This document shows, in pieces, positions 37,230 to 37,800 of a stretch of 43,535 nucleotides of DNA. The first letter of the stretch is position 1; every line of letters begins with the position of its first letter. This stretch comes from a virus (taxonomy: Duplodnaviria > Heunggongvirae > Uroviricota > Caudoviricetes). Location of the stretch: IMG/VR virus record IMGVR_UViG_2740892272_000004; one strand, 5' to 3'. The position numbers and the translations under genes are program-made. The notes under the pieces are model-generated. The model worked only from the letters and a program-made list of their open reading frames with translations. It was not told the DNA's origin and did not search any database.

Positions 37230-37523
37230 TTATTGCAGTGTGCCTGATGCTTTATGCACGCGGTGGCGTTTAATGATGGCATCCGCTCCAAAAGACTGTG
37301 CAGATGCCTGAAATTCCGCTGAGAGAAACTGAATAATTGCAGGACTGTGATACTGGAGAATACTTGCATAAACGTCACAGAGTGACGTCGGCCTGTTATC
37401 CGTATCACGTTCTGTTTTCACATCCACTCCAATCTTTTCATGCACTTCAACACAGTCATTGCCTGCCAACTTTTCGTCATGCGAAACATGATTAAATTCA
37501 AAAATAACGCGTACTTTGCTCAT
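37230..37523 (-). CDS. Hypothetical small early protein, paralogue A (start MSKVRVIFEF)
   Basis: Shares the N-terminal MSKVxxIFE motif and a central AEF..A..S.F segment with the adjacent upstream ORF. Confidence 0.4.
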   Translation of the reverse strand: MSKVRVIFEFNHVSHDEKLAGNDCVEVHEKIGVDVKTERDTDNRPTSLCDVYASILQYHSPAIIQFLSAEFQASAQSFGADAIIKRHRVHKASGTLQ

Positions 37524-37527
37524 GGAA

Positions 37528-37800
37528 TTACCCCTGTTGATTAAATTCATTACCGTTAATAACCCCGGAAGCCATGCCTCTGTCTTTCATGAATGCACTG
37601 GCTTTCATTGCCACAAACTCTGCGAAGTTTCTGCTTTCTGCCAGCATAACCACCCCAAAAATCATGGCGGGTCCATTATCTTTCTTCTTTATTCCGGTTG
37701 AACGTATATCCAGACTTACCCCTCTGTGCGTGCTGCCATCAGAGTTTTTGCAGATAACATCTTCCTTGTATTCGAAAATAATGCGTACGACTTTACTCAT
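37528..37800 (-). CDS. Hypothetical small early protein, paralogue B (start MSKVVRIIFEY)
   Basis: Tandem paralogue of 37230..37523. Confidence 0.4.
   Translation of the reverse strand: MSKVVRIIFEYKEDVICKNSDGSTHRGVSLDIRSTGIKKKDNGPAMIFGVVMLAESRNFAEFVAMKASAFMKDRGMASGVINGNEFNQQG

Follow-up and report, generated by a model that had tools for sequence, protein, structure and literature searches.

Two very probably paralogous small genes occupy a fixed slot beside gam in a Mu-like prophage of Escherichia coli

Gene content and organization of the locus

The sequence examined here (the window) is a stretch of 43,535 nucleotides, IMG/VR record IMGVR_UViG_2740892272_000004, and represents a minus-strand Mu-like prophage of Escherichia coli. 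Its early genes, all those with coordinates here lying on the minus strand, follow the order Ner (41676-41906), MuA (39586-41673), MuB (38571-39512), a gene of phrog_3375 (38347-38574), a Kil-like gene of phrog_2679 (38080-38346), a small gene of phrog_1518 that encodes 93 aa (37797-38078), ORF2 (37528-37800), ORF1 (37230-37523), and gam (Mu Gam, PF07352; 36688-37218), followed by a Gp11-like gene and, further along, by GemA and Mor. This gene order bears out the initial annotation in placing the two ORFs in the semi-essential early region of a Mu-like phage, a region known to be poorly conserved and to encode small uncharacterised proteins (PMC8705779).

The coordinates and lengths of both ORFs were also given correctly in that annotation, and PGAP calls exactly the same products, of 90 aa for ORF2 (WP_000049428.1) and 97 aa for ORF1 (WP_000049310.1), at the identical locus of E. 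coli JE86-ST05, where both are named "hypothetical protein". When it is read mechanically, ORF1 extends to an ATG at 37550, which would yield a product of 106 aa. The start at MSKV is preferred over this ATG because a Shine-Dalgarno-like AGGGG motif, read from the sequence at 37531-37535 (minus strand) inside the last codons of ORF2, lies 7 nt upstream of the corresponding ATG, and because every member of the family begins, in the family alignment, at a methionine equivalent to that of the ORF1 MSKV.

The genes of this region are tightly packed. The ATG of ORF2 overlaps the stop codon of the phrog_1518 gene by 4 nt (ATGA); the stop of ORF2 is followed after four bases by the ATG of ORF1, and 11 nt lie between the stop of ORF1 and the ATG of gam. 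Between 36.0 and 39.0 kb, no promoter or terminator was predicted above chance on the gene strand, with matches found only on the plus strand, and the Rfam scan of the same interval returned no match. The packing and the lack of promoters or terminators above chance fit a location of these genes within a long operon, which we infer to be the early operon from the biology of Mu.

The phrog_1518 gene, a frequent neighbour of the family on its upstream side, is labelled "host nuclease inhibitor" in PHROGs, possibly through transfer of the annotation of Gam, and its 93-aa product has no Pfam match. The presence of this gene is independent of that of the doublet, and it is missing from four of the loci compared here (L015, L005, L006, and L007). 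Within the minus-strand early region, there is also an ORF of 79 aa on the opposite strand (33965-34204, plus strand). With its match to phrog_32893 (E = 1.3e-45) and its PGAP annotation, it appears to be a genuine gene in antisense orientation, located between gemA and the early genes.

Pairwise similarity of ORF1 and ORF2

The initial annotation had drawn attention to the N-terminus MSKV(V)R(V/I)IFE(F/Y) found in both products, and pairwise alignment confirms that this similarity is real and beyond chance. BLASTP aligns ORF1 with ORF2 over 76 residues at 22% identity (E = 6e-4), and the score of the local alignment (z = 6.4) was reached by one of 5000 shuffles. At the nucleotide level, the likeness resides in a 5' patch of ten codons, ATGAGTAAAGTCGTACGCATTATTTTCGAA in ORF2 (37771-37800, minus strand) and ATGAGCAAAGTACGCGTTATTTTTGAATTT in ORF1 (37494-37523, minus strand), which codes for the conserved N-terminal beta-strand of the family, and in which 25 of the 30 aligned nucleotides are identical (83%), in comparison with 36% over the remaining gene lengths. 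When the first 10-11 residues are removed, the pairwise score drops to a level that is not significant (z = 2.07, equalled in 207 of 5000 shuffles), and, given that the signal beyond the N-terminus is at noise level, the pair alone is insufficient to prove homology.

A central segment, AEFxAxxxSF, had also been read as shared, and here the claim failed. In the family alignment and in independent profile alignments, S68-A-E-F of ORF1 stands opposite A64-M-K-A of ORF2, and F59-A-E-F of ORF2 opposite A62-I-I-Q of ORF1, which leaves the two AEF tripeptides five residues out of register. The common "AEF" is probably a coincidence.

Homology through intermediate sequences

For each ORF, word-indexed searches recovered close relatives from E. 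coli and nothing further. A comparison of the two shallow subfamily alignments by hhalign gave E = 5e-6. When 1.84 billion cluster representatives were searched exhaustively by HMMER with a joint profile, 19 proteins reached E <= 1e-3, all of them members of this family, and six of these matches are full-length proteins (92-100 aa) that fall outside both subfamilies. The intermediate sequences have GVSxxIxSxGI...GP in common with ORF2 and YAxILxxxSPxIIxFLSxEF in common with ORF1, and the alignment of all the groups is collinear. A profile HMM based solely on seven single-copy relatives, from which both ORF1 and ORF2 were excluded, recognizes both proteins over profile positions 1-80, with scores of 62.4 bits for ORF1 and 31.1 bits for ORF2 (per-comparison E of 2e-21 and 1e-11, respectively). 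As a profile lacking both ORFs detects both, the sequences indicate that ORF1 and ORF2 are homologous over almost their whole length.

These results bear directly on the opposite view, in which the likeness of ORF1 and ORF2 is a short chance match, or reflects a shared translation-initiation context, between unrelated genes that have no common fold. The noise-level pairwise score beyond the N-terminus and the out-of-register "AEF" are in agreement with this view, as is the limited extent of the hhalign comparison of the subfamilies, which takes in no more than 42 N-terminal columns, with a probability of 86%. However, it has very little to recommend it once the singleton-only profile, which finds both proteins over some 80 positions, is considered together with the joint profile, which draws only this family from so large a set of proteins, and with the genomic slot, the length, and the predicted order of structural elements that the two proteins have in common. 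A short chance match at the N-terminus, which the initial annotation had named as the case that would overturn its reading, is thus largely refuted by the singleton-only profile, and the paralogy of the two genes that it had proposed stands. The paralogy of ORF1 and ORF2, together with the fixed slot before gam described below, can be accepted with high confidence.

The two proteins match separate PHROGs from end to end, both of them listed as of "unknown function": ORF1 matches phrog_2230 (E = 1.8e-38; residues 3-97, profile positions 1-88 of 89) and ORF2 matches phrog_4107 (E = 1.7e-54; residues 1-90, profile positions 1-90 of 90). All the single-copy intermediates match phrog_2230, as ORF1 does, and P0054, a divergent relative of ORF2, matches phrog_4107, as ORF2 does. 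PHROGs therefore divides one family into two groups, which it keeps apart and which are joined here through the intermediates. The result is a single small protein family that is restricted to the Mu-like prophages of the Enterobacteriaceae. Neither ORF has a match in the Pfam or NCBIfam scans, a PADLOC scan returned no family at E <= 1, and a tblastn search of 50,697 phage records yielded only two records of Stx phages with an inserted Mu-like phage. Literature searches found nothing on the family.

Genomic slot and copy number

The position of the family is constant. In all 22 loci examined, the family slot follows kil, either directly or after an intervening phrog_1518 gene, and lies directly before gam or before a DUF3164 gene that replaces gam, and the family gene often overlaps this downstream neighbour. 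In the Citrobacter-type Mu-like prophages, the gam slot after the family gene holds a DUF3164 protein of 212 aa (PF11363), which is encoded at 8303-8941 in L003, 5052-5690 in L007, and about 1803-2441 in L018-L023 and L025, and which may be a functional stand-in for Gam. In phage Mu itself, gam is preceded by an unrelated, helix-turn-helix-like gene, gp9, and a tblastn search of Mu with the family found no member. As Mu has no clear family member before gam, the family is not needed for the function of Gam.

The number of copies in the slot varies. A single copy is present in 14 Mu-like prophage loci outside the E. coli lineage, including one in Citrobacter braakii, which was the sole return of a contig scan with the singleton alignment. 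Two copies were found only in the E. coli lineage, namely in the window and at seven loci related to it (L001, which is identical to the window, L009, and L011-L015). Of 5426 complete E. coli genomes, 232 carry the 571-bp doublet (37230-37800), and strains of O157, O103, or O111 are numerous among them.

Some loci have been rearranged naturally. In L017 (NZ_AP045822.1), an IS66-family element, ISEc22 (3415-5750), replaces ORF2 and the genes upstream, and both ORF1 and gam are intact. An E. coli protein from NCBI, P0022 (67 aa), is an in-frame deletion fusion of residues 1-49 of ORF2 with residues 79-97 of ORF1, the junction being an "FG" present in both ORFs. In E. coli STEC299 (L016, NZ_CP022279.1), the slot contains a single family gene (843-1139); when this gene is compared with window positions 37494-37860, the 60 nt upstream (55/60) and the first 18 nt are ORF2-like, and the body of the gene is ORF1-like. 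This arrangement either represents a doublet that has collapsed by crossover in the shared 5' patch, or it is the arrangement that preceded the duplication.

Selection and mosaic alleles

Among nine loci of the E. coli lineage (19-35 allele pairs), dN/dS is 0.32 for ORF1 and 0.34 for ORF2, in comparison with 0.07 for gam, 0.17 for the phrog_1518 gene, and 0.18 for kil in the neighbourhood. Ratios of about 0.3 identify both as constrained coding genes, held more loosely than their neighbours, and ORF1 and ORF2 are thus real genes under purifying selection.

The alleles of the two genes have different histories from those of the flanking sequence and from one another. Allele B of ORF1 (L012-L014) differs from that of the window by dN = 0.32 and dS = 1.2, whereas dS is 0.19 in the adjacent gam of the same pair of phages, and in L009, dS is 0.66 for ORF2 against 0.05 for ORF1. 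The pairings of ORF1 and ORF2 alleles are varied and uncorrelated, which indicates independent assortment. The doublet slot is a recombination hot spot. Across E. coli genomes, identity to the window is mostly 90-95% for the doublet (184 records) and mostly 95-99% for the kil-gam stretch around it (183 records), which makes the doublet at 37230-37800 the most divergent part of its neighbourhood.

Origin of the second copy

ORF1 and ORF2 have the SK-V-R-IFE N-terminus in common, where the singletons have MSNKVQVIFTFE instead, and an ORF2-type gene was seen as the only copy in no phage found. Both of these features favour, and fit, a duplication within the lineage after which one copy diverged quickly. 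Beyond the first 13 columns of the alignment, the identity between ORF1 and ORF2 is 17%, that between ORF1 and the singletons is 28%, and that between ORF2 and the singletons is 19%. Bootstrapping of neighbour-joining trees unites ORF1 with ORF2 in 21 of 300 replicates when all columns are used, and in 0 of 300 when the N-terminus is removed. ORF2 forms a very long branch, which makes its placement unreliable, and the trees provide no date for the duplication. Of the "old tandem duplication" proposed at the outset, the paralogy is upheld by the profile evidence, and the duplication in place is not established, given the 17% identity, the 0/300 bootstraps, and the misaligned "AEF".

The second copy may, alternatively, have arrived from outside. 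In this scenario, ORF2 began as a divergent allele of this slot in another Mu-like phage and was captured by recombination, and its 5' end was later homogenised with that of ORF1 by gene conversion, so that the two genes would be "paralogues by acquisition". The low identity beyond column 13, which is no higher than that with foreign singletons, and the complete loss of the clade without the N-terminus both speak for such a capture, as does the contrast in DNA identity between the first ten codons (83%) and the rest of the genes (36%), which is the pattern that gene conversion or a recombination joint would produce; the slot is, moreover, a mosaic in which alleles swap independently of their neighbours. 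The argument from the trees is nevertheless weakened by the long ORF2 branch, the search found no phage with an ORF2-type gene as its only copy, and the N-terminus that ORF1 and ORF2 share to the exclusion of the singletons fits a lineage duplication. Capture is a live possibility for the origin of ORF2, although not the probable one.

Predicted fold and charge

The AlphaFold2 models of the two proteins, both of them confident, were built from one joint alignment, so that their agreement is partly built in and is not independent. In both models, a long two-stranded beta-hairpin is followed by a helix of approximately 30 residues; the hairpin comprises residues 4-21 and 24-39 in ORF1 (pLDDT 84.2, pTM 0.69) and residues 6-18 and 24-35 in ORF2 (pLDDT 83.4, pTM 0.65). 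Structure prediction had been suggested as a check on the common origin of the two genes, and the order of the elements is the same, although a direct comparison of the models is limited by their shared alignment. Each copy is predicted to be a beta-hairpin packed on a helix, with no enzyme-like site. No match was found at E <= 1e-3 in the Foldseek search of the BFVD viral structures, and a sequence-profile search of the PDB found no solved relative.

Hairpin-plus-helix units in solved proteins usually pair with a second copy. The predicted unit of ORF1 and ORF2 appears to be too small to bury a core alone, and its shape suggests that these proteins may form dimers. The two types differ in charge, with pI values of 4.8-7.0 (acidic to neutral) in ORF1-type proteins and 8.9-9.5 (basic) in ORF2-type proteins; in the window, the net charge is -2 for ORF1 (pI 6.3) and +2.6 for ORF2 (pI 9.25). 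This contrast is compatible with either a heterodimer or a shifted target. A membrane-bound or secreted protein was considered and rejected, as no obvious signal peptide or transmembrane stretch was seen when the sequences were read by eye.

Comparison with known systems

The protein of phage Mu that most invites comparison is gp7 (E6, 87 aa, phrog_10252), an uncharacterised semi-essential early protein encoded at 1785-2048 of AF083977, which resembles the family in its size, its location in the kil-gam region, and its MxKVxIxI N-terminus. Its match to phrog_2230 is weak, but collinear and nearly full-length (E = 0.009), it scores 6.7 bits against the family HMM (0.6 +/- 1.3 bits for shuffles), and hhalign aligns it with the family over 70 columns at E = 7e-4 with a probability of only 26%; its hhalign comparisons with the separate subfamilies are not significant. 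Unlike the family, the gp7 gene has a different position in the gene order and is not adjacent to gam, and the protein was not among the structures returned from the viral library. On the evidence of these sequence comparisons, gp7 may be a remote relative, representing the family in Mu at a different position of the early region.

ORF1 and ORF2 have the traits of accessory genes, being phage-restricted, small, early, variable in copy number, and mosaic in their alleles, as are the anti-CRISPRs, the Ocr/ArdA DNA mimics, and the Gad/Tad inhibitors, and their location beside the RecBCD antagonist Gam adds to the likeness to a counter-defence setting. They differ from the counter-defence proteins in that they match no solved protein in sequence or fold, are not strongly acidic, and have a dN/dS of about 0.3 with no positive selection. 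A DNA mimic of the Ocr/ArdA type was rejected on the grounds of these pI values (6.3 and 9.25). The initial annotation had pointed towards host-takeover and anti-defence genes in this region, and sequence, profile, and structure searches found no match of either protein to the known anti-defence or defence families. ORF1 and ORF2 are, then, not DNA mimics and not PADLOC defence proteins, and are unrelated to any solved structure.

Proposed function and alternatives

In the proposed mechanism, ORF1 and ORF2 would be expressed from the Pe operon early in the lytic cycle, alongside the transposition proteins, Kil, and Gam, and would act stoichiometrically as small dimeric proteins that bind a macromolecule of the host or the phage. 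They would form homodimers, or possibly an acidic/basic heterodimer of ORF1 with ORF2, and would serve as accessory host-interaction or counter-defence factors rather than as enzymes or core replication proteins. ORF1 is the conservative copy, approximately 28% identical to the singletons, and ORF2 the strongly diverged, basic one, with an N-terminal strand that is almost unchanged; ORF2 may have gained a new or shifted target after the doubling. Against this mechanism, ORF1 and ORF2 alleles assort independently, contrary to what a tightly co-adapted heterodimer would lead one to expect, and the dN/dS of about 0.3 shows constraint rather than the positive selection that is expected of a protein engaged in an arms race. 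The overall explanation, in which ORF1 and ORF2 are co-transcribed homologous early genes of a fixed slot at the side of gam, binder role included, is considered to be the probable one, albeit by a modest measure, whereas the specific role of small dimeric early binders engaged in host interaction is put forward tentatively.

The main functional rival to a host-interaction binder is an accessory role in the DNA transactions of the phage, such as the protection of ends or a replication function linked to Gam or DUF3164. A precedent of this kind is the "arm" of Mu, a genetically defined function that stimulates replication and has no gene assigned to it in the older Mu literature. An involvement in DNA transactions is compatible with the invariable and often overlapping position of the family gene beside gam or its DUF3164 replacement, and with the basic character of the ORF2-type proteins, which would suit the binding of nucleic acids. 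However, the Gam of Mu functions with no clear family member next door, the alleles of the doublet turn over much faster than those of gam, and no DNA-binding fold was recognised, all of which makes this role unlikely.

A more specific possibility is that ORF1, the acidic protein, pairs with the basic ORF2 in a heterodimer of an undescribed fold that acts together with Gam, either shielding the phage from sensors of Gam-blocked ends, such as Gabija-like or OLD-like nucleases, or inhibiting another host nuclease. Gam, which blocks RecBCD, is reported in recent work to license attack by Gabija (PMC12407980). A Gam-linked counter-measure of this type is appealing but purely speculative, and is judged to be improbable. 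The tentative reading of ORF1 and ORF2 as small dimeric binders of the early region is the one that is retained here.

Significance

The semi-essential early region of the transposable phages has long been a source of small genes to which no function is assigned. The present analysis merges two "unknown" PHROG families into one and fixes their position next to gam, and it reveals a lineage-specific doubling that combines one conservative copy with a fast-diverged copy of opposite charge. The doublet is an ordinary instance of duplicated and diverging small accessory genes in the early region of a phage, and reveals no new mechanism. It nevertheless offers a compact, testable pair for screens of host takeover and counter-defence in Mu-like prophages, which are common in the Shiga-toxin-producing E. 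coli. If the reading of the pair as a heterodimer that acts with Gam were true, these genes would represent a new anti-defence family that is locked to the gam slot of the Mu-like phages, and which may possibly include the gp7 of Mu.
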